This document shows, piece by piece, positions 21,026 to 60,613 of a DNA stretch of 64,000 bases. Each line of letters opens with the position of its first letter. Within the stretch, counting starts at the first letter, position 1. The stretch is taken from contig DYFC01000017.1 in assembly GCA_020725385.1 (NCBI GenBank), forward strand, positions 9,055 through 73,054. The letters run 5' to 3'. Source of the stretch: Nitrospira japonica (GTDB lineage: Bacteria > Nitrospirota > Thermodesulfovibrionia > Thermodesulfovibrionales > SM23-35). A program made the translations under genes and the position numbers. The notes beneath the pieces are model-generated. The model was not told the DNA's origin. It searched no databases and worked only from the letters and a program-made list of their open reading frames with translations.

Positions 21026-21129
21026 TTTATTACCCTGAAATATATTCCTCCTGAATTAATTAATTTTATTCTTAGATTTAGAATATACTATAAAAGGGTT
21101 TTAAGGCAAGAAGAAAATTTTAAAATTAA

Positions 21130-28505: not shown

Positions 28506-28559
28506 TTTTCCTCCCTCGGGAAATAATTTATTCAAAGCATGTTGTTAGCTCTGAAATTT

Positions 28560-28812: not shown

Positions 28813-28880
28813 TTTATTAATAATTACCTGAATACATAGACTTAATTTATATCACCTCCTTTCATGTAAATTTTGATTAA

Positions 28881-31277: not shown

Positions 31278-31285
31278 CTTAGATT

Positions 31286-32086: not shown

Positions 32087-33102
32087 TATTTTTCTCCGAA
32101 GAAAGCCGAACGTCTGGTAAGGGCATAAATAAAAAGGCTTCCGCCTAATATGCCGGTAATCACGCCGATTGGAAGTTCTACAGGTGAGATAATTGTTCTG
32201 GATAGCGTATCGCAGAAAATCAAAAAGCCTGCTCCAGAAAGAAAAGAACTTATTAAAACTATTTTGTGGTCTGTGCCTGCAAATATTCTGACAAAATGAG
32301 GTACAACAAGACCGACAAATCCGACCATGCCTGTAATAGAAACACTAAATCCTGTGAGAATGGAAGCCAAGAGGAAAAGTATTTTCTTAACCTTTTCTAC
32401 ATCTATACCAAGATGAGCTGCTTCTTCTTCACCTAATGAAATTGCGTTTAAATCCAGACAGAATAAGTAAGATATGAAAAGCCCGGAAATTGAGACAATA
32501 ACCATCAATTTTATTAGTAGCCAGTTCGGCTCTTCCAAAGAACCCATAACCCAGAAAACTATACTATGTAAATCTTCTGTACGGGATAAAGCCATAATCA
32601 GCATAATTAGAGATGAAGATATAAAGCTTATCATTACTCCGGTAAGTAGAATTTCGTGTATTTTAAAAACTTCTCTTTTCAAACTAAAAAAATAAAGTAA
32701 AACAATCACTGTAATTGCACCGGTAAACCCGCTTAATGGCAATGATAGAAAGCCTAATATTTCGTTTAACTTAAAAAGAATATTCAAGCATACTCCCAAT
32801 GCTGCTCCACCCGATATGCCAAGTGTATATGGTTCAACCAGTGGATTACGGAATATTCCCTGTAGAATAACACCTGCAAGACTTAATGCTCCTCCGGTAG
32901 CAAACCCTAAAATAATTCGTGGCAGGCGTATGTCGAAAATGATGCTGTATTCAGTGGTACACCTACTATATATAATAGAAGAAAAAATTTTTTTGGCAGG
33001 AATTCCTGATGAACCAACAGACAAAGAAAAAAGAATTATTACTGAAAGAATAATTCCTAAAATAAATAACCAGATAAGCCAATGTATTAATTTGTTTCTC
33101 AT
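32086..33102 (-). CDS. btuC: FecCD-family ABC permease
   Basis: About 10 TM segments. RLPRI and conserved G-rich motifs of FecCD/BtuC. Confidence 0.85.
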   Translation of the reverse strand: MRNKLIHWLIWLFILGIILSVIILFSLSVGSSGIPAKKIFSSIIYSRCTTEYSIIFDIRLPRIILGFATGGALSLAGVILQGIFRNPLVEPYTLGISGGAALGVCLNILFKLNEILGFLSLPLSGFTGAITVIVLLYFFSLKREVFKIHEILLTGVMISFISSSLIMLIMALSRTEDLHSIVFWVMGSLEEPNWLLIKLMVIVSISGLFISYLFCLDLNAISLGEEEAAHLGIDVEKVKKILFLLASILTGFSVSITGMVGFVGLVVPHFVRIFAGTDHKIVLISSFLSGAGFLIFCDTLSRTIISPVELPIGVITGILGGSLFIYALTRRSAFFGEK

Positions 33103-33938
33103 ATGTTTGGATGTAAGATATGAAATATTTCTTCCAATGTCTTAACAAAACTTACTGGAGTAGGGCTACAGAGTTTATTAGAATCGACAATGTAGATTCT
33201 ATTCTTTCTTATTGCATTTATAGTCTTATAATTTTGCCAGATTTTCTTTTCTTCTTCTCCAGCAATACCCATAGTAGCAATAATTATTACATCAGGGTTT
33301 TGTTTTAGTACTTCTTCTCGACTGTATATTCCCATTTCGTTGTTAGGACCAATATTTATCCCTCCTGCAAATTTAATAAAATCATCTATAAAAGAATCTT
33401 TTGGCGCTACCCATAAAGGTTTTGTGCCAATCTGTACAAGAACCTTTGTTTTTGGTAGATTCTTGACTTTATTTTGAATAGAGGATACATCTTTTTTAGC
33501 CTTATGAACTAGTTCCAGTGCCTTTTTTTCTTTTCCAACAATCCTGCCTAATTCAACAAATTGATTACATATCTCGTTGAAGCTTTTTGGTGCAGGAAAA
33601 GTAATTACCTTTATCCCCAGTCTTTTTAATTTTTCCTTAGCTTTTGGATTTATTAAAGACGTTGCAATAATTAAATCAGGATGAAGGCTTATTATCTTTT
33701 CAATGTTAACTTCTATTATATTGCCTATTTTTTCTATTTTCTGTGCTTCTTCCGGTCTATTACAATAAGTTGTAACGCCGACAAGTTTATCACCTCCACC
33801 CAAAAGAAAAAGTTGTTCTGTTATTGAAGGACATAAGGATATTATTCTTTGGGGATAAGTGGAACAAAAACCTATATTACAAATGCTAAACACAAAGATA
33901 ACTGTTATTAGTATTGGCATAATTATATATTTCTTCAT
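33099..33938 (-). CDS. btuF: Periplasmic corrinoid-binding protein (class III/cluster A SBP)
   Basis: Signal peptide, RIISLCPSITE, DLIIAT motifs typical of BtuF-like binding proteins. Confidence 0.8.
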   Translation of the reverse strand: MKKYIIMPILITVIFVFSICNIGFCSTYPQRIISLCPSITEQLFLLGGGDKLVGVTTYCNRPEEAQKIEKIGNIIEVNIEKIISLHPDLIIATSLINPKAKEKLKRLGIKVITFPAPKSFNEICNQFVELGRIVGKEKKALELVHKAKKDVSSIQNKVKNLPKTKVLVQIGTKPLWVAPKDSFIDDFIKFAGGINIGPNNEMGIYSREEVLKQNPDVIIIATMGIAGEEEKKIWQNYKTINAIRKNRIYIVDSNKLCSPTPVSFVKTLEEIFHILHPNI

Positions 33939-33959
33939 TTTAAATATATTCTTCTCATT

Positions 33960-34634
33960 TTATATTTCAAATTTGCTCCGTCTATTTTTTCTAAGCTTTA
34001 AGAACCAGTGTTTATCTTTTAAAACTTTTTCACCAGCTGTAAACTCAATAGTATTTTTAAAAATAGGGCCGTCATAAACAAAAGTATGATATTCACCTCT
34101 TTCGCCGCAAAGATCTACATTCAATAAAGCTTTTAAATCATCGATAAAACTTCCATCAATTTCGCGTCCTAACCAATCTTTATCTAGAAACTCAGAATTA
34201 GTAGCCACTATTATGGCTTTGAACCCTACGTCAATAAATTCATTAAGCAATTTTATTCTTTTTTCTTTCCATAAAGGCAAAATTGGCTTTATATTTATTT
34301 CTTTACAAACCCTTTCTACCCAATCTCTGTGCTCCTGAAGGTCAATATCTCCGAATATACCCGCTTCAATGCCATTTTTTTCTAAATTATAAACAGCTTT
34401 TTTGAATTCTTCTTCGTAATTTTTCCACGAAGTCTTTCTCTGAATAATGGATAATCCTATTGCTTCTGCCTGTGCTCTCAATAAATCAGAGCCAATTCCG
34501 TGAGAACGGGAACGATTTCCATCCTCTGTAGCCATATTTAAAAGGTATTTAATCTCGACTTTACCGAGATTCTTTGCCCTATAAAAGGCTAATGATGTAT
34601 CTTTGCCGCCGCTCCATGAAATAAATGCTTTCAT
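33960..34634 (-). CDS. PP-loop ATP pyrophosphatase of the Dph6/MJ0570 (ATP_bind_4) family
   Basis: MKAFISWSGGKDTS PP-loop at the N-terminus. ATG 34634 lies 1 nt after the stop of the upstream gene (the track start at 34661 is less likely). Confidence 0.7.
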   Translation of the reverse strand: MKAFISWSGGKDTSLAFYRAKNLGKVEIKYLLNMATEDGNRSRSHGIGSDLLRAQAEAIGLSIIQRKTSWKNYEEEFKKAVYNLEKNGIEAGIFGDIDLQEHRDWVERVCKEINIKPILPLWKEKRIKLLNEFIDVGFKAIIVATNSEFLDKDWLGREIDGSFIDDLKALLNVDLCGERGEYHTFVYDGPIFKNTIEFTAGEKVLKDKHWFLKLRKNRRSKFEI

Positions 34635-34635
34635 A

Positions 34636-35553
34636 TTATTTATTTCTCCAATCCAAAACATAACCGCATACCTTGCAGTGAAAAGCCGTAAGTTTCATTC
34701 CTGCTCCGCATCCCGGACATTCCTTCTGAGAATATTTTGGTCTGGGGATGTCTCCAATTTCTTTTCTATAAATCTCATAATAATAAAGGTGTTCCTTATT
34801 CAAAAAGTTTATGGGATATAGCTTTTTCTTTTCTTCAAACTCATCGTCAGAGATTTTTAATGAAATAATTTCTCTCAACTTAGTCATTCCCGAACCATAC
34901 TCAAGTGGCCTTTTATCCTGCCAGATAATTTCTGGCGGCAATGTATTTTCAAACGCTTTACGCAATATCCATTTGCCGAAGATTTTACCGTTATGTTTTT
35001 TTATTTTTGAATCAACAGGTATTTGTAAAGCAAAATCTATAATATCCTTATCCATAAAAGGTTGGATTATCTTAATTTTAAAAAACTTACCAATATTATT
35101 AGAGCTAAAACTCATGTTTCTTGAGATTCTTTTGATATAATTTTCTAAATCATTTATATCTTTCATAAAAGAATATCCGCCAAATAACTCGTCACTTCCA
35201 TCACCTGTTGCTACTTCATCTAATCCTAAATTTTTAGCTAACTCAAGGCCAAAGTAAACCACTAAATCATTTGGTAAGGCAGGGTCAAAAGATTTCAATA
35301 TTTTTATTACTTCTGGAATTTTTTCTATTGCCTCATTTACTCTTACCTTCCTCATGATGTGTTTAATATTAAGAAAACTTGCCAGAGATTTTGAATAATG
35401 GACATCTTCTCCATCAGATTCTAAATTTACTGTAATAGCTGTGATTTTAGGATTAATAACTGCTAAAATTGAAGTATCCAAACCACCAGAAAAAAGCAAA
35501 CATTTATAGGAGTTTTTTCTTACTATTTCAGAAATTACTGTCTTTAAAAACAC
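34636..35553 (-). CDS. Asparagine-synthetase-like PP-loop adenylating enzyme (synthetase domain only) with C-terminal zinc ribbon
   Basis: LLFSGGLDTS PP-loop, ATGDGSDELFGGY motif, no N-terminal glutaminase domain, C-terminal CPGCG...CKVCG. GTG start with AAGGAG 9 nt upstream. Confidence 0.7.
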   Translation of the reverse strand: MFLKTVISEIVRKNSYKCLLFSGGLDTSILAVINPKITAITVNLESDGEDVHYSKSLASFLNIKHIMRKVRVNEAIEKIPEVIKILKSFDPALPNDLVVYFGLELAKNLGLDEVATGDGSDELFGGYSFMKDINDLENYIKRISRNMSFSSNNIGKFFKIKIIQPFMDKDIIDFALQIPVDSKIKKHNGKIFGKWILRKAFENTLPPEIIWQDKRPLEYGSGMTKLREIISLKISDDEFEEKKKLYPINFLNKEHLYYYEIYRKEIGDIPRPKYSQKECPGCGAGMKLTAFHCKVCGYVLDWRNK

Positions 35554-35690: not shown

Positions 35691-35759
35691 CTTTTCTCCC
35701 TCGAGAAAATTTTCAGGTTGTTTGTCCAAGTTTTAAAGTTCTTTTTAAACTTTTAACTT

Positions 35760-35997
35760 GGAACTTTTTGCTCTGGATAGGTCTTCCGGCTTAGGGCAGT
35801 TTAATTTCTTTTCTACTAACCCGCCTTCCCGGAGAAACCGTTCAAACTGTTCAATCAGTTCTAACAGTCTTACTCCAGTGGCTTAAAGACAGTGATTGAA
35901 ATTCTTCTAATTCACTGTTTTCCCGGGTTTTCGTTCCCATCACGGCTGCGGGGCAGCGGGAGAATTGCCATTGGCTCACTCCTCTTCCCTGACTTCC
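35760..35997 (-). promoter_or_regulatory. Cobalamin (AdoCbl-type) riboswitch 2, paralog of riboswitch 1
   Basis: Minus-strand reading contains cagggaagaggagtgagccaatggcaattctcccgctgccccgcagccgtga, then gccactggag, then taagccggaagacctatcc. Long stretches are near-identical to 28560..28812. Confidence 0.85.
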
Positions 35998-36175
35998 GAA
36001 TATTTTATAACATATCACACAGATAATTTTCAATTGAAAAGCGAATAGCGTAGAGCGAAGAGCAAAGAGAAAAAAATTTATAACTCGATACACGAAACTG
36101 AAAATTAGCTAACTGTAAAAAAGTTGTTAGTAATCTGTATGGAACGGATATGGAGAAAGGACACTGCTAACGGAT

Positions 36176-47693: not shown

Positions 47694-49004
47694 TTATGCT
47701 TTGATTATTTTTTTACTTTTGATATTTTTAATGGCATTTCTTGTATCAATTATAAGTGAACTGTTTTTTAGAATGAAATGGTAATTATATTTTGAATGGT
47801 CTGTAACTATTACAACACAGTCATATTGTTTAAGCTTTCTTTCTGTTAATGGAACACTTTTCATAGAAAGTTCAGGATAATGTCTCATGCCTGAAAATGA
47901 AGGAATATACGGGTCATTATAATCAACTTTTGCCCCTTTGTCTTTTAAGATGCTTATTATTTCAACTGCAGGTGATTCGCGGATGTCATCAGTGTCTTTT
48001 TTGTAAGCAACTCCGAGAATTAGGATTTTTGATTTTTTTAAGCATTTGCCATGCATGTTTAATCCATCTAAAATTTTTGAGACTACATATTCTGGCATAC
48101 TTGTATTTATTTCGCCAGCAAGTTCTATAAAGCGGGTGTTAAAATCATATTCCTTTGCTTTCCATGATAAATAAAAAGGATCAATCGGTATGCAATGACC
48201 TCCTAGCCCGGGTCCGGGATAGAATGGCATAAAACCAAAAGGCTTTGTTGATGAAGCATCTATAACTTCCCAAATATCGATTCCCATTTTATCAGAGAGG
48301 ATTTTTAGTTCATTTACAAGTGCGATATTTACACTTCTGAATATATTTTCAAGTAGCTTTGTAAATTCAGCAACTTCAGGAGAGGAAACCGGAATAATTT
48401 TATTAATAACCTGTTCATATAAGACTCTACCTATTTCTGTGCAATATCTGCTTATACCTCCGACTACTTTCGGAATATTTTTAGTGTTAAATTTTGGATT
48501 ACCAGGGTCTTCTCTTTCTGGAGAAAAAACTAAGTAAAAGTCTTTTCCGACTTTTAATCCTTTTTTTTCAAATTCTGGAAGAAGTATTTCCCTTGTAGTT
48601 CCAGGATATGTTGTACTTTCAAGAGATATCAGATGATTTCTTCTTAAATATTTAGCAATTTCAAGTGTAGTATTTTTGATATAACTTAGATCAGGTTCTT
48701 TGTTCTTTTTTAAAGGTGTTGGAACGCAGATTATTATACAATCTGTATTCCTGAGCCTTGAATAATCTGTTGTAGCTTCAAATAATTTTTTTTCTCTGAC
48801 AGCCAAAATATTCTCAGAAGGAATATGTTTTATATAACTTATACTATTATTGAGTTTCTGAACTTTTTTTATATCAATATCAAATCCTGTTACTTTAAAT
48901 TGCTCCTGTGAAAAACGAATACATAATGGAAGTCCAACATAGCCAAGGCCGATAACACCAACAGTTGCTTCTCTGTCCTTTATTTTCTGAATTAAATTTT
49001 TCAA
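47694..49004 (-). CDS. Nucleotide-sugar dehydrogenase (WbpA/WecC-like UDP-N-acetyl-hexosamine 6-dehydrogenase)
   Basis: N-terminal GVIGLGYVGLP Rossmann motif and catalytic GGHCIPIDP. Confidence 0.85.
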   Translation of the reverse strand: MKNLIQKIKDREATVGVIGLGYVGLPLCIRFSQEQFKVTGFDIDIKKVQKLNNSISYIKHIPSENILAVREKKLFEATTDYSRLRNTDCIIICVPTPLKKNKEPDLSYIKNTTLEIAKYLRRNHLISLESTTYPGTTREILLPEFEKKGLKVGKDFYLVFSPEREDPGNPKFNTKNIPKVVGGISRYCTEIGRVLYEQVINKIIPVSSPEVAEFTKLLENIFRSVNIALVNELKILSDKMGIDIWEVIDASSTKPFGFMPFYPGPGLGGHCIPIDPFYLSWKAKEYDFNTRFIELAGEINTSMPEYVVSKILDGLNMHGKCLKKSKILILGVAYKKDTDDIRESPAVEIISILKDKGAKVDYNDPYIPSFSGMRHYPELSMKSVPLTERKLKQYDCVVIVTDHSKYNYHFILKNSSLIIDTRNAIKNIKSKKIIKA

Positions 49005-50410
49005 TGGGGTTTTCTCCCATAAATATCATCCAATCTCACAATATCATCTTCTCCTACATATTCGCCATTTTGAACTTCTATTATTTCAAGAGGAACTTTA
49101 CCAGGATTTTCAAGCCTGTGAAGGGTTGATTTAGGAACATAGATTGACTCATTTTCATGGATATAACTCTCTTTGTCTCCAATAGTTACCTTTGCCGCTC
49201 CTTTTATTACCACCCAATGTTCCGAGCGATGATAGTGCATTTGAAGGCTGAGTCTTTCTCCCGGATTAACAACTATTCTTTTTATCTTATATCTTGTACC
49301 TTCTTCAAGAATTGTATAGCTGCCCCATGGTCTATAAGTAGTTAAATGTTCAAGAGCTTCTTTTCTTTTACTATTATTAAGAGTCTTCACTATTTCACGA
49401 ACTTTCTGTGTCTCACCTTTTTTAGCGATCAACACAGCATCATCAGTGTCTATTATAAGACAGTCTTCAATGCCTATTGTAGAAATAAGCCTTTTATTGC
49501 TGATTATTAGAGTATCCTTAGTATCAACAGTAATAGTATCACCCATTTTTACATTGCCTTTTTCATCTTTATTAGCAACATCATAAAGTGAATCCCATGA
49601 ACCAATATCATTCCAATAAATATCAAGAGGTAGTACAGTCATTTTATCGGATTTTTCTGCAATAGAATAATCGAGTGAAATATCAGGCATCTCATCAAAT
49701 CTTTCAACTAATTCATCGAATCCTAACTCATACATATTAGCAATTTCTGGAGCGTATTTTTTGAACTCTTTTTGCATTGTCCTGATTTTAAATGCAAACA
49801 TACCTGAATTCCAGTAATAATTGCCATCTTTTATATATTTTTCAGCTGTTTTAGTATCAGGTTTTTCAGTAAATTTATCTACTTTAAAAAATACTTGATT
49901 TCTTTGATGTCCCTTGTTTTCTACCTTTATATAACCGTAACCTGTTTCGGGTCTTGTTGGCTTTAGTCCAAATGTAACAATATAACCTTTACGGGATATT
50001 TCTTCTGCTGTTTTTACATATTCTGAAAACTTTTCAGCCGGTCTTATCATATGATCTGAAGGAGAAACGAACAATACTTCGTCCTCTGCAGTTCCAAGCT
50101 TATCAAGACAATATTTCATGCCCAAGGCTATTGCAGGTGCTGTATTCCTTCCAACCGGTTCGAGAATAATATTATTTACCGTTTTTTTACTATTGGATAT
50201 AGAATTAAGATCGGAAATAACGTGAAATTTATATTCATTGTTAGTCATTACAATTATGTCTTCAGGTGAAAAAATATTCAAAAGCCTTTTAATAGTTTGC
50301 TGTAATAGAGAGTTGTTGTCACCTAATTTCAAAAATTGTTTCGGGAAATTTTTCCTGCTCAAAGGCCATAACCTTGTGCCAGACCCCCCCGCGAGAACTA
50401 AAGCTTTCAA
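49001..50410 (-). CDS. manC: Mannose-1-phosphate guanylyltransferase / mannose-6-phosphate isomerase
   Basis: [14 protein letters not shown] at the N-terminus. C-terminal cupin with RPWG.Y and QMH.HR.EHW. Confidence 0.9.
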   Translation of the reverse strand: MKALVLAGGSGTRLWPLSRKNFPKQFLKLGDNNSLLQQTIKRLLNIFSPEDIIVMTNNEYKFHVISDLNSISNSKKTVNNIILEPVGRNTAPAIALGMKYCLDKLGTAEDEVLFVSPSDHMIRPAEKFSEYVKTAEEISRKGYIVTFGLKPTRPETGYGYIKVENKGHQRNQVFFKVDKFTEKPDTKTAEKYIKDGNYYWNSGMFAFKIRTMQKEFKKYAPEIANMYELGFDELVERFDEMPDISLDYSIAEKSDKMTVLPLDIYWNDIGSWDSLYDVANKDEKGNVKMGDTITVDTKDTLIISNKRLISTIGIEDCLIIDTDDAVLIAKKGETQKVREIVKTLNNSKRKEALEHLTTYRPWGSYTILEEGTRYKIKRIVVNPGERLSLQMHYHRSEHWVVIKGAAKVTIGDKESYIHENESIYVPKSTLHRLENPGKVPLEIIEVQNGEYVGEDDIVRLDDIYGRKPH

Positions 50411-50424
50411 TTTATAACCTCCGG

Positions 50425-51837
50425 TTACTTATAAAATTTTATACATTTATTTAATTCGTTTTCCATAAACTTTTTGTAGATATTCAAAGATTCCCGATCT
50501 TCAGCTTCAAAACGCATAACTATAACAGGCTGTGTATTACTTGTTCTTACAAGTCCCCATCCTTTCTCAAATACCACTCTTACACCATCTATGTCATAAA
50601 TTCTCTTAACTGGAAAAGGACTTTGTCCTGAAGAGATATAATTTCTAAATCTATCAACAAGTCTATCAACAATTTTTTTCTTCATATTTTCTTCGCATTC
50701 AAGGCGAATTTCCGGAGTATGATGTAATTGAGGGATTCCTGATAACAATTTCTTCAAATTCAAGCCGGTTTTTTTCATTATTTCGATAATTCGGAAAGAT
50801 GTATATAATGCATCGTCAAAACCAAAATAATCATCAGCTATAAAAATATGTCCGCTGAATTCTCCTGCAAGAATTGCTTTTTCTTCTTTCATTTTGTTTT
50901 TTACAAGAGAATGTCCTGTTTTCCACATTATGACTTTTCCACCATTTTTTTCAATATCTTCAAATACTGATTGAGAACATTTTACATCTCCTATAAAGAC
51001 TGAACCTGGCAATCTTTTTAGAATATCTCTTGCAAGTATAACCATTAATTGATCTCCCCATATAATATTACCATTATCGTCAATTACACCAATACGATCA
51101 GCATCTCCGTCATATCCTATTCCGATATCTGCTTTTTCTTCGATAGTAGTATGAATCAGATCTTTTATATAATCTACTACAGTGGGATCCGGATGATGAT
51201 TTGGGAATCTACCATCGGGTTCACAATAGAGTTGGATTACTTCACACCCCATTGATTGAATTATCTCAGGACTTACTATACCTCCGGTACCATTTCCTGC
51301 ATCAATAACTACTTTTAATTTTCTATAATCATTACTGGAAAGATAAGAAAACTTTTTTTTCATGAAGTCTTTATATGCGGTATTTATCTCGAAATACTCC
51401 ATATATCCTTTGACTTTATTATTTATAAATACCTTTTCTTCGATAATATATTTGAGTTCCTGTATCTTTTCTCCAAAAATTGTATCTTTGCCAACACTAA
51501 TTTTAAAACCATTGTATTCTGGTGGATTATGACTTCCTGTTACCATTATGCCACCATCAAGATTTAGATGAAAGATTGAAAAATATTGTAGAGGGGTAGG
51601 GCATAAACCTATATCATATACATTTATGCCTGTTCCAATAATACCTCTGATAACAGAATTAGCCAATGATTCAGAACTGAGTCTTCCATCCCTGCCAACA
51701 CTTACCCATTTTGCATCAGGATTTACTTTTTTAAGATAAGTTCCAAAAGCAAGGCCGAGATTATAGGCAAAGTCTTCATTTATATCTTTCCCTGAAATAC
51801 CACGAATATCGTATTCTCTAAAGATGTTCTTATCCAT
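50425..51837 (-). CDS. manB: Phosphomannomutase/phosphoglucomutase
   Basis: TGSHNPPEYNG active-site loop, DGDADR metal loop, GEFSGH sugar loop. Confidence 0.9.
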   Translation of the reverse strand: MDKNIFREYDIRGISGKDINEDFAYNLGLAFGTYLKKVNPDAKWVSVGRDGRLSSESLANSVIRGIIGTGINVYDIGLCPTPLQYFSIFHLNLDGGIMVTGSHNPPEYNGFKISVGKDTIFGEKIQELKYIIEEKVFINNKVKGYMEYFEINTAYKDFMKKKFSYLSSNDYRKLKVVIDAGNGTGGIVSPEIIQSMGCEVIQLYCEPDGRFPNHHPDPTVVDYIKDLIHTTIEEKADIGIGYDGDADRIGVIDDNGNIIWGDQLMVILARDILKRLPGSVFIGDVKCSQSVFEDIEKNGGKVIMWKTGHSLVKNKMKEEKAILAGEFSGHIFIADDYFGFDDALYTSFRIIEIMKKTGLNLKKLLSGIPQLHHTPEIRLECEENMKKKIVDRLVDRFRNYISSGQSPFPVKRIYDIDGVRVVFEKGWGLVRTSNTQPVIVMRFEAEDRESLNIYKKFMENELNKCIKFYK

Positions 51838-51840
51838 TTT

Positions 51841-52833
51841 TTAACTATATACTTTCTTCCAGTATTTTCTTAAAAATTTAAGTTTACGTTTTACCCAATC
51901 TAAGTTTTGTATGTACCATTTAACAGTTTTTTCAATTCCTACATCGAAAGTTACTTTTATATCCCATCCTGTTTCATTACGGATTTTTGATGAATTTAAA
52001 GAATACCTGAAATCGTGTCCAGGTCTGTCTTTAACAAATTCAATAAGACTATAGTCTTTTTCGAGCAAGTCTAATATTTTCTTAACAACTTCAATATTTT
52101 TCTTTTCCTGACCGCTCCCAACATTATATATTTCTCCTGCAATTCCTTTATTTATAATTTTAAAAATTGCTTCGGCACAATCAGAAACATAAAGCCATTC
52201 CCTTATATTTTCACCTTTACCATAAACTGGAATCTTTTCGTTATTTAATGCTTTTAAAATCACAACAGGTATAAGTTTTTCAGGATATTGCCATGGACCA
52301 TAATTATTTGATGGCCTGACTGTTATAACAGGAAGTCCATATGTTCTGAAATATGCTCTCCCAAGCATATCTGCTGATGCTTTGCTTACTGAATATGGGG
52401 AATTTGGATTAATTGCGCTTGTCTCGGTGAAATGCCCATTATAACCGAGTTCTCCATAAACTTCATCGGTGGAAATATTAATAAATTTTTTAATGCATTT
52501 TTCTTTTGATACATCCAGAAGAACTTGAGTGCCTTTAATATTTGTATCAATAAAAGGTGAAGCATTAAGAATACTTCTATCAACATGACTCTCTGCAGCC
52601 CAATGAACAACAATATCAGGTTTGAATTTATCGAAAATAATTCTTAAAGTTTTTATATCAGTAATGCTTCTTCTGTGAAAATCAATTTTATCAATGATAT
52701 TTTTAAGACGTTCCAAATCACCGGCGTAACTGAGATTATCAACTACAGCTATTGAGTAACCCTTTTTTACTCCTGATCTTACAAATTCACTACCTATAAA
52801 ACCTGCTCCACCTGTAACAAGAATTCTTTTCAT
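51841..52833 (-). CDS. rfbB: dTDP-glucose 4,6-dehydratase
   Basis: VTGGAGFIGS, STDEVYG, YSVSKA motifs. Confidence 0.9.
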   Translation of the reverse strand: MKRILVTGGAGFIGSEFVRSGVKKGYSIAVVDNLSYAGDLERLKNIIDKIDFHRRSITDIKTLRIIFDKFKPDIVVHWAAESHVDRSILNASPFIDTNIKGTQVLLDVSKEKCIKKFINISTDEVYGELGYNGHFTETSAINPNSPYSVSKASADMLGRAYFRTYGLPVITVRPSNNYGPWQYPEKLIPVVILKALNNEKIPVYGKGENIREWLYVSDCAEAIFKIINKGIAGEIYNVGSGQEKKNIEVVKKILDLLEKDYSLIEFVKDRPGHDFRYSLNSSKIRNETGWDIKVTFDVGIEKTVKWYIQNLDWVKRKLKFLRKYWKKVYS

Positions 52834-52839
52834 GGTTTA

Positions 52840-53697
52840 CTAAATATCTTCCTTTTTATATAGAGTTTCAATATATCTATCAATACCTGTTTTCCAATCA
52901 GGTATATCAACATTTAAAGCTCCGGAAAGCTTCTTATTAGACATTGCTGAAAAAAAAGGCCTTTTTGCAGGAGATGGAAAGTCATTTGAATTTGCCGGTA
53001 GAACAAGATTTTCTAAGCCTGCACGTTCTATGAAGTATCTTGCCACCTCATATCTCGAAGCATATCCGCTGTTTGTTAAGTGATAAACTCCACGAAGTCT
53101 TTTATTTATCGAAAAAAGCGTTAGGCTGACAATATCGTTGGTGTAAGTTGGAATGGAAATCTGGTCACATACTATCTTAAGAACTTTATTATTTTTAGCC
53201 CAATCCAATAACTTTGATAAGAAATTTTGTCTTCCTTGACCAAAAACCCAGCTAACTCTGAATAAAAGAAAATTATTCATGGTATCCTGAAGATATTTTT
53301 CACCTAATAATTTACTTTGCCCATATTTATTCAGGGGATTAGGTTCATCATCTTCATTATAAAAGTCTCTCTTCAACCCATCAAAAATATAGTCTGTACT
53401 GTAATGAACAAGCAAAATATTGTTCTTTTTACATGCAATGGCAAGATTCATAACACCTTCTGCATTTACTCGGAGAGCTATTTCATAATCATCTTCAGCC
53501 TTATCAACAAAATTATACGCTGCACAATTTAATACAATATCAGGTTTATTTTCCTCTATTTTTTTTAGGACAGCATCCATATTTGAGATGTCAAGACTTG
53601 CCTTATCAAAAGAACAATAATCATGTCCAAAATCTTTTAAATATTCAGGAAATTCTTTTGCAAGCTGTCCGTTAGCCCCTGTGATTAAAAATTTCAT
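52840..53697 (-). CDS. rfbD: dTDP-4-dehydrorhamnose reductase
   Basis: ITGANGQL, STDYIFDG, YGQSKLLGE motifs. Confidence 0.9.
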   Translation of the reverse strand: MKFLITGANGQLAKEFPEYLKDFGHDYCSFDKASLDISNMDAVLKKIEENKPDIVLNCAAYNFVDKAEDDYEIALRVNAEGVMNLAIACKKNNILLVHYSTDYIFDGLKRDFYNEDDEPNPLNKYGQSKLLGEKYLQDTMNNFLLFRVSWVFGQGRQNFLSKLLDWAKNNKVLKIVCDQISIPTYTNDIVSLTLFSINKRLRGVYHLTNSGYASRYEVARYFIERAGLENLVLPANSNDFPSPAKRPFFSAMSNKKLSGALNVDIPDWKTGIDRYIETLYKKEDI

Positions 53698-53727
53698 AAA
53701 ATCTTATAAAAGTAATGAAGATTAATG

Positions 53728-54282
53728 TTAATAAACAAAATTATTATCTGCTTCCTTCAAATAAGGATGCTTTTTATCTTTTTCTGAAAGTATAGGTTCT
53801 AATATAGGCCAGTTAATATTTATATCAGGATCATTCCATATTATACCTCTATCACAAACAGGGGAATATTCTCTTGTGCATTTATAAAGAACTTCAGCAG
53901 TTTCTGAGATTACAACAAAACCATGTGCAAAACCTGATGGGACATAGAGCATTAACCTGTTTTCTCCTGATAACTCAACTCCAATCCATTTTGAATAATA
54001 AGGTGAATTTTTACGTATATCCACTACAACATCAAATATTTTACCTCTTAAGCACTGAACAAGCTTTGCCTGAGCATCGGGATTTTTTTGATAATGAAGT
54101 CCGCGCAAAACCCCTTTATATGAAAATGAGAAATTATCCTGTAAAAAGTATTCTTTGATTCCAGCTTTTAGAAAGTCTGAATATTTGTAAGTCTCAGCAA
54201 AATACCCTCTTGAATCAGAAAAAATTTCAGGTGTTATTAAAATTACTCCCGGGATTTCTAATTGCTTAAAAGTAAATGGCAT
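53728..54282 (-). CDS. rfbC: dTDP-4-dehydrorhamnose 3,5-epimerase
   Basis: D.RG.F.E, LRGLHYQ, KLV.C..G...DV.VD.R motifs. Confidence 0.9.
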   Translation of the reverse strand: MPFTFKQLEIPGVILITPEIFSDSRGYFAETYKYSDFLKAGIKEYFLQDNFSFSYKGVLRGLHYQKNPDAQAKLVQCLRGKIFDVVVDIRKNSPYYSKWIGVELSGENRLMLYVPSGFAHGFVVISETAEVLYKCTREYSPVCDRGIIWNDPDININWPILEPILSEKDKKHPYLKEADNNFVY

Positions 54283-54286
54283 ATAT

Positions 54287-55159
54287 TTATTTAATCAATC
54301 TCATTAAATATTTTCCGTATTCATTCTTATTAAGATTTTGGGCAAGTTTAATTAACTGTTCCTTATTTATGTAACCTAATTTAAAAGCTATTTCTTCAAT
54401 ACATGCAATCTTAAGCCCCTGTCTTCTCTCGATTGTTGCTATAAATTCACCTGCTTCAAGAAGGCTTTCATGTGTCCCTGTGTCAAGCCATGCAAAACCT
54501 CTACCCATTAATTCTACCCTTAATTTTTTATTTTTCAGGTATTCTTTGTTTACATCTGTTATTTCAAGTTCTCCTCTATGTGAGGGTTTTATTCTTTCTG
54601 CGATACAAATTACTTGATTATCATAGAAATAGAGTCCTGTAACCGCATATTTTGATTTTGGAGTTTTTGGTTTTTCTTCGATTGAAAGAACATTACCGTT
54701 TTCATCAAACTCTACAACCCCGTATCTTTCAGGATCATTTACATAATATCCAAATACTGTGGCTCCTCCAAGATTCTCAATATCAGAATATGCTTTTTTC
54801 AGTAAATTTGTGAAACCATGACCGTAAAATATATTATCTCCAAGAACAAGGCAAACATTATCATCTTTTATGAATTCCTTAGCGATTATGAATGCCTGGG
54901 CAATTCCACCGGGATGTGGCTGTTCTTTGTATGAAAAATTCAGACCAAGATTTTCTCCTGTCCCAAAAATCTGGATAAAGCGGGGCAAATCAGCAGGTGT
55001 TGAAATGATAATAATATCCCTTATCCCTGCGAGCATTAAAACAGATAAGGGATAATAAATCATCGGTTTATCGTATATAGGTAACAACTGTTTACATACC
55101 CCTAAAGTAATGGGGTATAATCTTGTTCCGCTTCCGCCTGCTAAAATTATGCCTTTCAT
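54287..55159 (-). CDS. rfbA: Glucose-1-phosphate thymidylyltransferase
   Basis: [29 protein letters not shown] motifs. Confidence 0.9.
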
Positions 55160-55245
55160 TTTGTATTTTATTTTACATTACATTAATAAATATTAAAATA
55201 CCTTGTTATTCACATTATTTCAAATTTTGTGATAAGATTAGTCTG

Positions 55246-56106
55246 ATGAAAATAATTGATATTCATACTCATGGGATTGGCGGGTATGACACAAGAACTA
55301 CAGATTTTAAACACCTCTTAAACATAGCACATCTTCATGGCTTAAAAGGTGTAGAAGAAATTCTCCTTACAATTTATCCAGCAACAATCAAATTAATGCG
55401 TGAGAACATGGAAAATATAAGAAAAGCTATGGAAATACAAAATCAATTAATTGATAATGGTTCTAAAATTATTGGAATTCATCTTGAAGGTCCTTTTCTT
55501 AATCCTGCCTATTGTGGCGCTTTAAATGCTATGACTTTTCTTGAACCTTCTGAAAAATTATTTTATGAATTGGTGGAAGGTTATGAAAATATTATTAAGA
55601 TTATAACAATTGCACCGGAACTTGATGGTGCTCCTGAACTTATTAAAAAAATTTCCGACATTGGAATCATGGTAAACATGGGACATTCAGAGGCAACATA
55701 CAATGAAGCTGAAAATGGATATAATCATGGGGCAAAAGGAGTTACACATATATTCAATGCCATGAAAGGGTTACACCATAGGGAACCGGGGCTTGCAGGT
55801 TTTGGTTTGTTAAATAAGGATGTTTTTATAGAAATGATTGCTGACCCTTTTCATCTTAGTGAAAAAACAATCGAATTAATTTTTAAAGTTAAAGACCCTG
55901 AAAAAATAATTATTGTTTCCGATTCTGTAAAAGAGACAGAAACTTATCCGGAAAACAAAGGGATATATAGCAATTATGGCAAATTGCTCGGTGGTAGTAT
56001 GACTATAACTGAGTCTGCAAAAAGGCTAATTGATTCAGGATATGAAAAAGAAATAATAATGAATTGCATCACATCAAACCCAAAAAAATATTTAGAAAGG
56101 GAGTAA
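55246..56106 (+). CDS. NagA-like amidohydrolase (N-acetylglucosamine-6-phosphate deacetylase family, lacking the N-terminal beta-sandwich)
   Basis: IDIHTHGIGGYD, GIHLEGPF, ITIAPEL, MGHSEAT, THIFNAM, ADPFH match the NagA metal/catalytic motifs. ATG 55246 is preferred, because the track start at 55123 overlaps rfbA and encodes low-complexity sequence. Confidence 0.6.
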   Translation: MKIIDIHTHGIGGYDTRTTDFKHLLNIAHLHGLKGVEEILLTIYPATIKLMRENMENIRKAMEIQNQLIDNGSKIIGIHLEGPFLNPAYCGALNAMTFLEPSEKLFYELVEGYENIIKIITIAPELDGAPELIKKISDIGIMVNMGHSEATYNEAENGYNHGAKGVTHIFNAMKGLHHREPGLAGFGLLNKDVFIEMIADPFHLSEKTIELIFKVKDPEKIIIVSDSVKETETYPENKGIYSNYGKLLGGSMTITESAKRLIDSGYEKEIIMNCITSNPKKYLERE

Positions 56107-56110
56107 ATTA

Positions 56111-56317
56111 ATGTCAGAGAAAGTTATTATTTATGGAAAGCCGGGTTGACCATATACAAAAAAAGCACTTGATGCTTATGGAGATAATGTTGAATATTAT
56201 GATGTGAAAGCAGATGATAAAAATATGGAGAATATGCTAAAGATTTCAGGCGGAATAAGAAAAGTGCCTGTAATAGTAGAAAAAGGTAAAGTTACGGTAG
56301 GATTTGGTGGTGCATGA
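56111..56317 (+). CDS. Glutaredoxin-like selenoprotein (in-frame TGA = Sec at 56147..56149; UxxT redox motif)
   Basis: My translation: MSEKVIIYGKPG-U-PYTKKALDAYGDNVEYYDVKADDKNMENMLKISGGIRKVPVIVEKGKVTVGFGGA*. The thioredoxin-fold pattern (VPV...G..V.GF) continues after the TGA. A candidate SECIS hairpin lies at 56150..56181. Confidence 0.7.
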
Positions 56318-56328
56318 ATTGTTTAATA

Positions 56329-56346
56329 ATTTAGCGGCAGCTAAAT
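56329..56346 (+). terminator. Hairpin after the selenoprotein gene (weak terminator candidate)
   Basis: atttagc-ggca-gctaaat forms a perfect 7-bp stem, but no clear T-run follows. Confidence 0.25.
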
Positions 56347-56443: not shown

Positions 56444-56926
56444 ATGTGGTATGCAATTTATTTGAAATCAGGAAAAGAAGATTCGGTTTCCTCACATCTC
56501 AAGAATGCTGGGATTGAAGTAATTAATGCAAAGCTAAAAATAAAAAAGTTTAAAAATAATAAATTAACAGAGGTTATCGAGCCTTTATTTCCCTGTTATA
56601 TATTTGCCAATTTTGATAAGGATAAATATTCTCATATGATTACGTTTACCAGAGGAGTTCGTTATATAGTTGGAAAAAGTAATCCGTTAGTTGTAAGTGA
56701 AGATATAATTCAAGCTATTAAAGAAAATATGAATGAAAATAATTTTGTAATTATAAAACCCCGTAAATTTTCAAAAGGGGAAAAAGTTATTATTAAAGAA
56801 GGTCCTTTGAAAAATTTTTATGGAATATTTGAGAAAGAGCTTAAAGGACCAGAAAGAGTAATGATACTTCTTGAAACTCTTAATTATAAAGTGGAGATTG
56901 ATGGAAGTTATCTTGAAATAGCTTAA
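56444..56926 (+). CDS. NusG-paralog transcription antiterminator (UpxY/RfaH-like)
   Basis: The MWYAIYLKSGKE NGN-domain start with PLFPCYIF, plus a C-terminal KOW (KGEKVIIKEGPLKNFYGIF). Confidence 0.75.
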   Translation: MWYAIYLKSGKEDSVSSHLKNAGIEVINAKLKIKKFKNNKLTEVIEPLFPCYIFANFDKDKYSHMITFTRGVRYIVGKSNPLVVSEDIIQAIKENMNENNFVIIKPRKFSKGEKVIIKEGPLKNFYGIFEKELKGPERVMILLETLNYKVEIDGSYLEIA

Positions 56927-57022: not shown

Positions 57023-58303
57023 ATGGTAAAAAAATCAGAAAATAAAGAATATATCAGACCCCTTGAAAGAAAAGTCGAAGCTTTAAGAATTCTTACAGAG
57101 GTATCTTCAATAATATCATCTACACTTGATATCCGAGAATTGATGTCTCTTGTTATGGAAAAAGCAAAAGAAATTTTAAGTGCAGATGCATGTTCGATTC
57201 TTATTTATAACAAAAAGACCAATAAACTCGAGTTTGAAGTTGCTATATGCGGTGAAGAATCAACTTCAGAAATGTTAAAGGAAAAAATAACTCTTGATAT
57301 GGGGCAGGGCATAGCTGGTTGGGTTGCACAGAACCAGCAAATTCTTGTAATTAAAGATGTAAAAAAAGATAAAAGGTTTTTTCATGATGTAGATAAAATG
57401 ACTGGTTTTGAAACAAAATCTCTTATCGCTGCTCCTTTAATTGGAAGGCGTGGTTTAATCGGAGTTGCCGAAATAATCAATCCGCAAAAAGAAGATTATG
57501 ACCTTGAAATATTAAGTATCCTTACAAAGCATTTTGCAACTGCAATAGAGAATGCTATATACCATTCTGAATCTCTTGAAAGAGAAAGAATTAAACAGGA
57601 ACTCGAAATTGCAGCAACATTGCAAAAAAGTTTTTTGCCTGAAAACCCTATTTTTGAAAAAGGAAAAATTAAAGTTTTCGCAATAAACATACCAGCAAGA
57701 CATGTAGGTGGAGACCTTTATGATTTTGTAGAACCGGTCAGGGGAAAAGTAGGAGTTTTTATTGGAGATGTTTCAGGTAAAGGTGTATCTGCTGCTTTAT
57801 ATATGGCTAAAATTATAAGTGATTTCAGGTATATTGCACGTGGAATTAATTCTCCTTCAGAAGTTATGGGTAAATTGAATAAAGTACTATCTGGTGCGCC
57901 TAGAGGGATGTTTCTTACTGCTATATATCTTATTATTGATGTGGGAAATGGAGAATCGGTTATTTCAGTTGCAGGGCATCCTCCCTGCATACTCATAAAT
58001 AAAGATGGAATAAAGGTTCTGGAAATGCAGACGGGGCCGCCGCTTGGAATTATTGAAACTGATTTTAAGGAGAATAAGATTAGTCTAAGGAGCGGTGACA
58101 GATTAATTATGCTTACAGATGGAGTATTTGAAGCAAAAAATATTTCAGGAGAAAGAATAGGTTTTAATGCTATATTGGAGTTTATTGGAGAAAACCAAAA
58201 TATTGAAAATTTGTCTGAAAAAATAATAGGCCATATTAATGAATATTCAAAAAATACAGAAATGGCTGATGATATCACAATTGTAGAAATTAAAATCCGG
58301 TGA
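57023..58303 (+). CDS. GAF-domain PP2C-type serine phosphatase (RsbU/SpoIIE family)
   Basis: GAF region (aa ~25-180). PP2C motifs are GGDLYDF, GDVSGKGVSAA, TDGVFEA, DDITIVE. Confidence 0.85.
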   Translation: MVKKSENKEYIRPLERKVEALRILTEVSSIISSTLDIRELMSLVMEKAKEILSADACSILIYNKKTNKLEFEVAICGEESTSEMLKEKITLDMGQGIAGWVAQNQQILVIKDVKKDKRFFHDVDKMTGFETKSLIAAPLIGRRGLIGVAEIINPQKEDYDLEILSILTKHFATAIENAIYHSESLERERIKQELEIAATLQKSFLPENPIFEKGKIKVFAINIPARHVGGDLYDFVEPVRGKVGVFIGDVSGKGVSAALYMAKIISDFRYIARGINSPSEVMGKLNKVLSGAPRGMFLTAIYLIIDVGNGESVISVAGHPPCILINKDGIKVLEMQTGPPLGIIETDFKENKISLRSGDRLIMLTDGVFEAKNISGERIGFNAILEFIGENQNIENLSEKIIGHINEYSKNTEMADDITIVEIKIR

Positions 58304-58707
58304 AAGATTCGGTTAAAATAATAATACCTTCACATCCAAAGTATTTATCTGTGGTCAGGAATGTTACTTCAAAGATTGGTGAAATATACGGGATTGATGA
58401 AACAATAGTGAATGATTTAAAACTTGCAATTGATGAAGCATGTACAAATATAATCAGACATGCTTATAAAGGTGATACAACAAAGAGAATTATAATTAGA
58501 TATACAGTTAATCCCGGGCAATATACTGTTGTTCTTGAAGATAATGGAATAAAAGCCGATAAAAATAAACTAAAGGGAAGAGATCTGAACGATATAAAAC
58601 CTGGCGGACTCGGAATACATTTTATAAAAAGAGTTTTTGATATTTTTATGCTTGATGAAAAAAAGAAAAAAGGCAATAGGCTTATTCTTGTTAAATATCT
58701 TAAATGA
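58300..58707 (+). CDS. Anti-sigma-type serine kinase (RsbW/SpoIIAB-like HATPase_c)
   Basis: EACTNIIRHAY N-box and DNG...GGLGIHFI G-boxes. 4-nt overlap on both sides. Confidence 0.8.
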   Translation: MKDSVKIIIPSHPKYLSVVRNVTSKIGEIYGIDETIVNDLKLAIDEACTNIIRHAYKGDTTKRIIIRYTVNPGQYTVVLEDNGIKADKNKLKGRDLNDIKPGGLGIHFIKRVFDIFMLDEKKKKGNRLILVKYLK

Positions 58708-59036
58708 AAACTGAAATAACAGATTTTAAAGGGAATAAAAGAATTAAGATAACAGGTGATATTGATATGCATACTTCTCCTGAACTCAGAGAAGTTCTTT
58801 TATCAATAATAAAGAAGTCAAAAAATCAGTGCGTCTGTGTGGATTTTACGGATGTTACTTATATAGATAGCTCAGGTATTGCCACATTTGTTGAAGGACT
58901 TAAAGCAATAAGGGCATCCGGGAGTAGATTATTTTTCTACGGATTACCTGAAAGTATAATGGAAATCTTCAGGTTCTCAAGACTTGATAGGGTATTTGAG
59001 ATATTCAGGACATTTGAAGATGCCTTCGGAATCTAA
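58704..59036 (+). CDS. STAS-domain protein (anti-sigma antagonist RsbV/SpoIIAA-like; possible MlaB analog)
   Basis: 110 aa with the YIDSSGI phosphorylatable-serine motif. Directly abuts and overlaps mlaE. Confidence 0.85.
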   Translation: MKTEITDFKGNKRIKITGDIDMHTSPELREVLLSIIKKSKNQCVCVDFTDVTYIDSSGIATFVEGLKAIRASGSRLFFYGLPESIMEIFRFSRLDRVFEIFRTFEDAFGI

Positions 59037-59826
59037 GAATATTGTAGAAGTTATAGGAAGTAAAACAAAACCTATTAAGATAAGCATACATAATATTTCA
59101 TGCATTATTAATGATATTTTTTACTGGACTTTTATCTCTCCTTTTAAAGGATTTCCCATAAGGTTTAAGGCTTGTGTTAATGAAATGGTTAAAGCAGGAT
59201 ATAATTCAGTTCCTATAATCTCTGTAATCTCTTTTTTTATAGGTGTTATTCTTGCTTTTCAGGCTGCTTATCAACTTAAAAAAGTAGGGGCTTTGATTTA
59301 TGTTGCAAATCTCGTTGGAGTGTCTCTTACAAGAGAACTCGGACCGATAATTACAGCAATAATTGTCTCTGGAAGAAGCGGCTCTGCTTATGCCGCAGAG
59401 ATAGGTTCAATGAAAGCTGCTGAAGAGATTGATGCATTGATAAGTATGGGAATAAATCCTGTCAGGTTTATTGTTGTTCCAAAACTCATAGCTCTGATGG
59501 TAATGGTTCCCGCTCTTACGATTTTTTCTGACTTGATTGGAATATTCGGTGGCTTCGTATTATCAACTACTATTCTTGAAATACATCCTTCAAATTATTT
59601 CCAGCAAACTATAAATGCACTTCTTGTTAAAGACATCCTAACCGGGCTCATGAAAGCATGGGCATTCGGAGTTGTAATAACAATAGTCGGTGTTTATCAA
59701 GGGTTTATGGTAAAAGGCGGAGCTGAAGAAGTAGGCCGTAGAACTACATCAGCTGTTGTTGCTTCTATCTTTTTAGTAATTGTATCGGATTTATTTTTCA
59801 CAGCATTATTTTATTATTTCACGTAA
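59020..59826 (+). CDS. mlaE: MlaE-family ABC permease
   Basis: REL.P.....V.GRSGSA..AEIG.M...EEIDA motif. ATG 59020 is preferred over the track start at 58984. Confidence 0.85.
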   Translation: MPSESKNIVEVIGSKTKPIKISIHNISCIINDIFYWTFISPFKGFPIRFKACVNEMVKAGYNSVPIISVISFFIGVILAFQAAYQLKKVGALIYVANLVGVSLTRELGPIITAIIVSGRSGSAYAAEIGSMKAAEEIDALISMGINPVRFIVVPKLIALMVMVPALTIFSDLIGIFGGFVLSTTILEIHPSNYFQQTINALLVKDILTGLMKAWAFGVVITIVGVYQGFMVKGGAEEVGRRTTSAVVASIFLVIVSDLFFTALFYYFT

Positions 59827-59827
59827 T

Positions 59828-60613
59828 ATGGAAAAAGCAATAGAAGTAGAAAACTTAGTAACACATTACGGAGATAGAGAGATATTAAAGAATATATCTT
59901 TCTCAATACCAAAAGGTTCGATTACTGTAATACTCGGAGGAAGCGGATGCGGTAAAAGCACTTTGCTAAAACACCTTATAGGATTGCTCAAGCCAACTTC
60001 AGGAAGGATAATTATAAAGGGAAATGATATAACAAAAATGAATGAAGATCAGATGAATGAGATAAGAAAAAAAATGGGTATACTTTTTCAGGGTGCTGCT
60101 TTGCTTAATTCAATGACAATTCTTGATAATGTTGCTTTGCCTTTACACGAACATACAAAACTTAAAGAATCAACAATTGAAATAATGGTCAGGATGAAAC
60201 TTGACCTTGTTGGGCTGTCAGGTTTTGATTCTTTCTATCCTTCTCAACTTTCAGGTGGAATGAAAAAAAGGGCAGGACTTGCGAGAGCCCTTGCCTTAGA
60301 CCCTGAAATGCTTTTTTTCGATGAGCCTTCAGCAGGACTTGATCCTGTTACTGCTGCCGGACTTGATGAACTTATTATTAAATTGAATAAGGTTTTCAGA
60401 ATGACAATTATAGTGGTAACTCATGAATTGCCGAGTGTATTCAAAATAGCTGATTATGTTATTATGCTTGACAAAGGCTATGTGATTTTCTCGGGAACTC
60501 TTAATGAACTGAAGACTTCTGATAATCCAAGAATCAGAATGTTTCTTGAAAGGCAGCCTGAAGAGGAAAAATATTCACCAGATGATTATTTCAAGGTAAT
60601 TGCAGGAGAGTAA
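59828..60613 (+). CDS. mlaF: MlaF-family ABC ATPase
   Basis: GGSGCGKST Walker A, LSGGMKKRAGLARA signature, FFDEP Walker B. ATG 59828 lies 1 nt after the mlaE stop. Confidence 0.9.
   Translation: MEKAIEVENLVTHYGDREILKNISFSIPKGSITVILGGSGCGKSTLLKHLIGLLKPTSGRIIIKGNDITKMNEDQMNEIRKKMGILFQGAALLNSMTILDNVALPLHEHTKLKESTIEIMVRMKLDLVGLSGFDSFYPSQLSGGMKKRAGLARALALDPEMLFFDEPSAGLDPVTAAGLDELIIKLNKVFRMTIIVVTHELPSVFKIADYVIMLDKGYVIFSGTLNELKTSDNPRIRMFLERQPEEEKYSPDDYFKVIAGE

Follow-up and report, generated by a model that had tools for sequence, protein, structure and literature searches.

A probable UXX-star family 1 selenoprotein gene with two selenocysteine codons and an untranslated second recoding hairpin in a Nitrospirota-like genome

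Background

UXX-star selenoprotein family 1 consists of proteins of about 70 residues with a glutaredoxin-like fold, a [U/C]-x-x-T motif and a second selenocysteine (Sec, U) three residues from the C-terminus. In the passages of PMC9312934 and PMC13188914 that deal with it, the family is called "Distant Grx-like protein 1", is given a UxxT motif and is credited to Zhang and Gladyshev 2008; PMC13188914, a review of 2026, maps it in its family entry to the profile NF041114 with two Sec residues. The corresponding entries of the review attribute UXX-star families 2 and 3 and the HUGP/GUXX-star fusion to Haft and Tolstoy 2025. The subject of this report is a gene at 56111-56326 on the plus strand of a 64,000-nucleotide stretch (the window) of contig DYFC01000017.1 of the Nitrospira japonica assembly GCA_020725385.1, an AT-rich (about 33% GC) and Nitrospirota-like source among the genomes that carry the family. 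Comparison with homologues makes it very probable that this is a working gene for a 71-residue family 1 member with two selenocysteines. A preliminary description, made from the letters of the window, had seen only the first of them.

The selenocysteine insertion sequence (SECIS) of Escherichia coli fdhF has a minimal upper stem-loop about 11 nucleotides (nt) after the UGA, with the loop AGGUCU, and under bacterial SECIS rules of the bSECISearch type the apical loop lies about 16-37 nt downstream of the UGA and one of its first two bases is a G. Like the fdhF type, the family has a small hairpin that follows the UGA at a short, constant spacing. In most members the loop at the first site is AGGUC, resembling that of fdhF, and loops such as GGU and GUU are present at the second. 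The window gene differs from the fdhF type in its site-1 loop, CUUGA, in stems of only 5-7 base pairs (bp), and in that its second element lies wholly outside the translated sequence. Mammalian thioredoxin reductase, which ends in a Gly-Cys-Sec-Gly tail, was reportedly expressed in E. coli by Arner and colleagues in 1999 from a construct with an engineered bacterial SECIS downstream of the stop codon. That construct and the window gene both place a (presumed) redox-active Sec among the last three residues and a SECIS of bacterial type after the stop, in untranslated sequence. However, thioredoxin reductase is a large flavoenzyme in which the position of the SECIS was engineered, whereas the window gene, of 71 residues, has the arrangement naturally; furthermore, the partner residue in thioredoxin reductase is adjacent in the sequence, while that of the window protein would be at the glutaredoxin active site.

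Structure of the gene

The frame opens at ATG 56111, separated by a 4-nt gap from the TAA stop (56104-56106) of a NagA-like gene, and reads MSEKVIIYGKPG-TGA-PYTKKALDAYGDNVEYYDVKADDKNMENMLKISGGIRKVPVIVEKGKVTVGFGGA-TGA, with one internal TGA before 56315. The first TGA, at 56147-56149 (TGA-1), corresponds to Sec13 of a U-P-Y-T motif (residues 13-16) and falls at the glutaredoxin active-site position in the codon alignment of 81 sequences described below. The second, at 56315-56317 (TGA-2), is followed by ATT GTT TAA TAA and corresponds to Sec69, the third residue from the C-terminus; the ending U-I-V-stop is the "UXX-star" signature. The true stop is the TAA at 56324-56326, with another TAA immediately after it at 56327-56329, so the coding sequence contains 71 codons plus the stop. 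The encoded product is MSEKVIIYGKPG-U-PYT...GFGGA-U-IV; within it, residues 52-53 are the conserved V-P and residues 66-67 the Gly-Gly. A Shine-Dalgarno-like sequence read from the DNA, AAAGGGAG at 56096-56103 on the plus strand, lies 7 nt before the ATG, overlaps the last codons of the NagA-like gene, and would be the ribosome-binding site.

Much of this had been seen in the preliminary description, which pointed out the ATG after the NagA-like stop, the internal TGA at 56147-56149 and the reading MSEKVIIYGKPG*PYTKKAL...KVPVIVEKGKVTVGFGGA*, and which observed correctly that the gene is absent from the open reading frame (ORF) track; standard ORF lists miss it. The description gave the frame as 68 codons ending at 56317. 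The TGA there is instead assigned as the second Sec codon: because reading through it raises the NF041114 score, and because TGA occupies 56315-56317 or its equivalent in 81 of 81 sequences, the feature ends three codons further on, at 56326. A scan of the whole window for TGA-interrupted ORFs produced no other plausible selenoprotein gene, the rest of its output being implausible frames.

Membership in UXX-star family 1

For profile scoring, both TGAs were written as Cys in the 71-residue product. NF041114 ("UXX-star selenoprotein family 1", an equivalog) gives 108 bits against a cut-off of 72, with protein residues 5-71 matching profile positions 1-70 of 70. The 68-residue version still scores 102 bits but ends at profile position 67, and full coverage requires read-through of TGA-2. 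The protein also exceeds the cut-off of the parent subfamily, NF041212 (82 bits, cut-off 66), and that of the Pfam Glutaredoxin profile PF00462 (38.4 bits, cut-off 22.9), which identifies only the generic domain. These matches bear out the suggestion of a glutaredoxin-like selenoprotein with a UxxT motif and a TGA at the site of the first redox Cys, as well as the mention of a 'Uxx-star' family in NCBIfam. What did not survive is the single Sec: the residue at 56147-56149 stands, but the name "UXX-star" refers to the second one, whose codon had been taken for the stop.

The window gene is likewise a small glutaredoxin-like domain ending U-x-x-stop when set beside UXX-star families 2 and 3 and the HUGP/GUXX-star fusion (NF041211, NF047338 and NF045501), yet its scores of 47, 45 and 54 bits against these profiles are far under the cut-offs of 100, 97 and 325. 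With small glutaredoxins, NrdH and YruB-type redoxins it shares the thioredoxin fold, an active site at the N-terminus of helix 1, the V-P at the cis-proline position and the Gly-Gly, but here too every specific model (35, 28 and 26 bits with TIGR02196, TIGR02181 and TIGR02194) scores well under its cut-off (88.6, 90 and 86). The nearest solved structures by sequence, glutaredoxin 2klx and NrdH 4fiw, are found with weak E-values. Unlike canonical glutaredoxin or NrdH, the window protein has UxxT instead of CxxC or CxxS, a Thr replacing the resolving Cys, and unlike classical glutaredoxins it lacks the C-terminal helix and has a Sec-bearing tail instead. More distant relatives of the CPYC type keep CxxC and so have one Sec instead of two, according to the homologue alignment and the table of the review.

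All of the features that define family 1 at the level of sequence are present: the profile score, U-x-x-stop, [U/C]-x-x-T, and a hairpin after each UGA. The gene departs from the usual member in two details, its U-I-V tail (1 of 81; the usual tail is U-G-V) and its first loop, CUUGA instead of AGGUC, and such deviations are in kind common only to its closest relative. It is thus an ordinary member of an already catalogued selenoprotein family.

Codon evidence across homologues

The codon comparison used 81 sequences, the window gene and 80 loci kept out of 252 relatives found by a scan with one genome per species. The 80 loci, mostly from Nitrospirota/Thermodesulfovibrionia, Desulfobacterota and Pelotomaculum and covering several phyla, have the same architecture as the window gene; the closest (L001), from a Nitrospirae metagenome-assembled genome (MAG), is 84% identical to it. 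At the position of TGA-1 (site 1) the codon is TGA in 65 sequences, TGC in 11, TGT in 4 and TAA in 1. Thus, as the preliminary description had anticipated for Cys-containing homologues, Cys is present at the U position, in 15 of the 81. The single TAA belongs to a Nitrospirae MAG (L046) and may be an error, because the contig has a coverage of only 3.2x.

Site 2, the position of TGA-2, is TGA in all 81 sequences, and in each of them two sense codons, no more and no fewer, separate it from the stop. The two residues are Gly-Val in 67 sequences and Gly-Ile in 6, with Ile-Val in the window only and other pairs in 7. The glycine is encoded by GGG (35), GGC (24), GGA (8) or GGT (7) and the valine by GTG (22), GTC (19), GTA (18) or GTT (11), and such synonymous variation in the two tail codons is the pattern expected of translated sequence. 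The final stop is TGA in 46 sequences, TAA in 29 and TAG in 6. In those 46 members, then, a true TGA stop lies 9 nt after a Sec-encoding TGA, and the two TGAs, three codons apart, are presumably read differently owing to their distance from the hairpin.

Protein-level conservation continues across both TGAs in 80 genomes, and a loss of conservation past the first TGA, which the preliminary description had named as the sign of a false call, is not what the homologues exhibit. Among 44 relatives obtained from protein searches, many have W at both TGA positions (GK.GWP.T and GGAWGV), apparently from a gene caller that read TGA as Trp. Public predicted proteins of the family include some with spurious C-terminal extensions and others truncated at the second TGA.

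Recoding hairpins

The first hairpin, SECIS-1, lies inside the coding sequence at 56163-56177 on the plus strand (AAGCA-CUUGA-UGCUU) and consists of 5 bp closed by a 5-nt loop. It is built from codons 18-23, and its loop begins 21 nt after the U of TGA-1. In the alignment of 57 distinct Sec-type sequences, 96.1% of cells are paired and 24 cells are compensatory; none of 500 column shuffles did as well, and registers slid along the alignment are only 10-57% paired. The loop is closed by a pair between two synonymous sites, the third positions of codons 19 and 21; this pair can form in 57 of 57 Sec-type genes but in only 5 of 15 Cys-type genes (Fisher p = 5.6e-9). Since the closing pair is kept where site 1 is Sec and mostly lost where it is Cys, the Cys-type genes serve as an internal negative control.

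The minimum free energy fold of this region of the window is a longer structure, in which CCAUA (56150-56154) pairs with UAUGG (56177-56181) and AGCA (56164-56167) pairs with UGCU (56173-56176) around the loop CUUGA (56168-56172). This is the hairpin of the preliminary description, and it is conserved in its inner part only. The AGCA/UGCU stem holds and is one A-U pair longer than had been proposed; the outer stem, 56150-56154 with 56177-56181, is not conserved: the one pair in it that varies is unpaired in 43 of 57 sequences, and its other pairs are fixed by Pro and Gly codons.

The second hairpin, SECIS-2, is a 7-bp stem with a 4-nt loop (AUUUAGC-GGCA-GCUAAAU) at 56329-56346 on the plus strand, in the 3' untranslated region (UTR). 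The stem starts on the final base of the second TAA and the loop begins 21 nt after the U of TGA-2, a position relative to the codon that makes the second SECIS wholly untranslated. In the window sequence it folds with -6.9 kcal/mol (z -2.5, with 4 of 200 shuffles as good). The RNAalifold consensus has 6 pairs, with compensatory changes in all of them. In the alignment 86.8% of cells are paired, with 120 compensatory cells against 41.7 +/- 6.9 after shuffling; none of 500 shuffles did as well, and pairing falls to 22-46% in slid registers. Every homologue has a counterpart with a differing stem sequence, such that 54 distinct 5' arms occur in 81 sequences. The loops are G/U-rich (GUU, GGU, AGUU and GUG) and mostly start with G or AG; in 51 of the 81 sequences the loop start falls at +20 or +21. 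No relevant Rfam family matched the locus: there was no match at gathering thresholds, and a permissive local scan returned chance snoRNA matches only.

At both sites of the window gene the distance of +21 is within the range for bacterial SECIS elements given above, and the GGCA loop of SECIS-2 has an early G, which the CUUGA loop of SECIS-1 lacks. Together, the codon and covariation analyses indicate selection on both UGAs, each of which is accompanied at a fixed distance by a covarying hairpin of its own.

Weighing the alternatives

Several observations weigh against the reading of 56111-56326 as a gene for a working protein with two selenocysteines. The site-1 hairpin is weak in the window sequence by itself (-5.1 to -5.9 kcal/mol, z -0.9 to -1.2), where 29-33 of 200 shuffles fold as well or better; being no better than chance in one sequence, its importance is seen only by comparing homologues. 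Its loop also lacks the G-rich start of the AGGUC found in 39 of 59 distinct homologues. Neither selA, selB, selD nor a tRNA-Sec gene was found in the 64-kb window, which contains no tRNA genes at all, and the ten window ORFs of a size suitable for SelA, SelB or SelD encode other proteins (a B12 receptor, GlnA, PurM, sugar-nucleotide enzymes and so on). Finally, clustering of the neighbours of the 81 loci gave no family-wide conserved neighbour that would point to a pathway. In favour of the reading, the homologous locus of L046 has a tRNA-SeC(tca) at 4310-4407, about 700 nt upstream of its UXX-star gene (~5113), with leuB, thiC, thiE and a transposase gene around the tRNA gene; it is the one direct trace of Sec machinery close to a family gene.

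A weak hairpin at site 1 and a window free of Sec machinery are what would be seen if the frame were a pseudogene or a chance ORF whose TGAs are plain stops or inactivating mutations, the hairpins being incidental. This explanation is extremely improbable and is effectively refuted by the comparative data, given the conservation of the protein across both TGAs in 80 genomes of several phyla, the alternation of TGA and Cys codons at site 1, and the covariation of both hairpins, which at site 1 is confined to Sec-type genes. The many database homologues with W at both positions could instead suggest that TGA is a sense codon, for Trp or Gly, under genetic code 4 or 25. However, TGA ends 9 of the 43 window ORFs of at least 200 amino acids, including genes whose curated profiles end there, so TGA is a normal stop in the source genome and an alternative code is excluded. 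In addition, the residue aligned with the TGA in homologues is Cys and not Trp or Gly, 46 of 81 family members use TGA as their own final stop, and the W entries are best explained as artefacts of gene callers; there is next to no chance that TGA is a sense codon here.

A different possibility accepts Sec13 and has the protein end after 68 residues at 56315-56317, with a single selenocysteine. The shorter version already exceeds the NF041114 cut-off with its 102 bits, and many database entries end at the second TGA. Sec insertion is rarely fully efficient, so some ribosomes probably do terminate at the second UGA. Nevertheless, a 68-residue end product is very unlikely, because exactly two codons stand between the TGA and a stop in 81 of 81 sequences, the tail codons vary synonymously while Gly-Val/Ile is kept, a covarying hairpin lies at SECIS distance from TGA-2, the curated profile runs three matched positions further, and the family entry of PMC13188914 lists two Sec residues. 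The hairpin at 56329-56346 might also be a transcription terminator or an mRNA-stabilising stem-loop and not a SECIS. Its location would suit this, just past the stop at the end of a probable NagA-like/UXX-star transcript, with the next gene about 100 nt on. But the stem is not followed by a T-run in the window or in most homologues, and a search for terminator-like sites at site 2 of the window gave none; the register relative to TGA-2 is fixed, with the loop at +20/+21 in 51 of 81; and the loops start with G or AG in most sequences. A role as terminator or stabiliser in place of SECIS function is highly improbable, although the hairpin may combine the two.

Proposed decoding and chemistry

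If decoding follows the established bacterial mechanism, SelB with its Sec-tRNA(Sec) would bind each hairpin and deliver selenocysteine at the corresponding UGA. In the resulting protein, a minimal thioredoxin fold, Sec13 would take the position of the nucleophilic cysteine of glutaredoxins, Thr16 would stand in place of the usual resolving cysteine, and Sec69 would be carried on a short C-terminal tail, two residues past the Gly-Gly, a motif that lines the active-site groove in glutaredoxins. This placement of a nucleophile, a Thr and a tail selenol near the Gly-Gly favours a couple between Sec13 and Sec69. We consider the chances about even that the redox couple is a reversible intramolecular Sec13-Sec69 diselenide or, in the 15 Cys-type genes, a Cys13-Sec69 selenenylsulfide. 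A less probable alternative, suggested by the review literature, is that the two selenols clamp a soft metal or metalloid. The observation that the C-terminal Sec is never replaced by Cys, while the active-site Sec sometimes is, would fit either a redox or a metal function if the tail residue is the chemically demanding one.

The NagA-like neighbour

The gene directly upstream (55243-56106, plus strand; 287 codons including the stop, 286 residues) encodes a short NagA-like amidohydrolase that comprises the catalytic barrel only, as judged by TIGR00221 and by structure alignment. Its score with TIGR00221, 180.3 bits, is under the cut-off of 225.65 and covers positions 58-327 of 380. Compared with NagA, of about 380 residues, it is therefore without the first ~57 and the last ~50 profile positions. 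It aligns with residues 57-270 of 376 in the Thermotoga maritima NagA structure 1o12 and, through the catalytic barrel, with solved NagA structures at E-values between 1e-35 and 1e-16. Within the aligned stretch are the segments IDIHTHG, HLEGPF and GHS, which we take to be metal-binding motifs. Many database homologues are of similar length (~284-348 amino acids), and their number indicates that the gene represents a distinct short subfamily and is not a decayed gene.

The preliminary description had called this protein truncated and coupled to the selenoprotein. The absence of the N- and C-terminal segments holds, and the coupling turns out to be limited to one Nitrospirota sub-clade. A NagA-like gene lies directly upstream on the same strand in 7 of the 64 loci with at least 950 nt of upstream sequence; in one further locus (L002) it is about 3 kb away. 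The positive loci all come from relatives of the window organism. Three more distant short-NagA loci (L081, L082 and L083, with L084 a duplicate of L083), from Thermodesulfovibrionia-type genomes, have no UXX-star gene downstream. With 0 of 3 distant loci carrying a UXX-star gene, an obligatory coupling is ruled out. In these loci, around 3001-3950, the short NagA-like gene is found with a family-3 glycosidase (GH3), an AmpG-like permease (MFS/Acatn), an AmiA-like amidase and an NTP-transferase/kinase (APH) fusion, a context that suggests amino-sugar or cell-wall recycling.

In the window, the NagA-like gene and the UXX-star gene are probably co-transcribed, as a lineage-specific pair. It is an improbable proposition that the two constitute a functional pair in a Thermodesulfovibrionia-like sub-clade, for example with a diselenide "selenoredoxin" servicing amino-sugar deacetylation. 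If this were true, the deacetylation step might serve cell-wall recycling or the synthesis of a sugar-linked low-molecular-weight thiol. In the same improbable reading, family 1 as a whole might be a minimal type of redoxin that uses Sec13-Sec69, in place of CxxC, as its catalytic couple.

Other neighbours and features of the window

Across the family the neighbours are lineage-specific only, and include sensor kinases, an NADPH-oxidoreductase-like gene, isochorismatase, TsaD/GNAT and others. A large Fer4_20/Pyr_redox_2 NAD(P)H oxidoreductase-like gene lies downstream of the UXX-star gene in 11 loci (e.g. L031, 6195-8477) and is absent from the window; its product could be a candidate reductase.

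In the window, the next gene downstream (56444-56926, plus strand) encodes a specialised NusG paralogue of the RfaH/UpxY-like kind, which scores under every curated cut-off. A sugar-nucleotide cluster lies beside it, with rmlBDCA at 51841-55159 and genes for PgmG-like, GMP/PMI and NDP-sugar dehydrogenase proteins at 47694-51837. Further downstream, 57023-59036 (plus strand) contains genes for a GAF-PP2C phosphatase-like protein (57023-58303), an RsbW-like protein (58300-58707) and a STAS-domain protein (58704-59036), assigned mostly by eye with weak matches; together they are likely to form a partner-switching module. MlaE/MlaF-like transporter genes, again read mostly by eye, come after the STAS-domain gene at 58984-60613.

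Elsewhere in the window there is a 6S (SsrS) RNA gene at 20842-21027 on the minus strand, a full-length match to Rfam RF00013 with 75.9 bits against a gathering score of 46.4. Two cobalamin riboswitches are found on the same strand, one at 28560-28826, just upstream of a TonB-dependent B12-receptor-like ORF (26640-28535), and another at 35759-36034, heading a run of minus-strand genes (28881-35553). The segment 9170-12989 is without long ORFs. By eye from the translations, it contains HicA/HicB-like toxin-antitoxin pairs at 10512-10873 (minus strand) and 11366-11781 (plus strand), a small gene pair at 12382-12989 (minus strand) and a transposase fragment at 9170-9655 (minus strand).

Significance

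What the analysis adds to the earlier reading of the locus is a second selenocysteine, a corrected 3' end, an untranslated second SECIS and a limited link to the NagA-like gene. The practical value is mainly one of annotation, since standard gene callers miss the gene, truncate it or place Trp at its Sec positions, and its true 3' end lies beyond the apparent stop codon. The locus also offers a natural example of two independent SECIS elements on one short bacterial mRNA, one of them located wholly in the 3' UTR, unlike the usual statement that bacterial elements lie inside coding regions. For the family, the invariance of the C-terminal Sec (81 of 81), set against the interchange of Sec and Cys at the active site, is a useful constraint for the study of its role.

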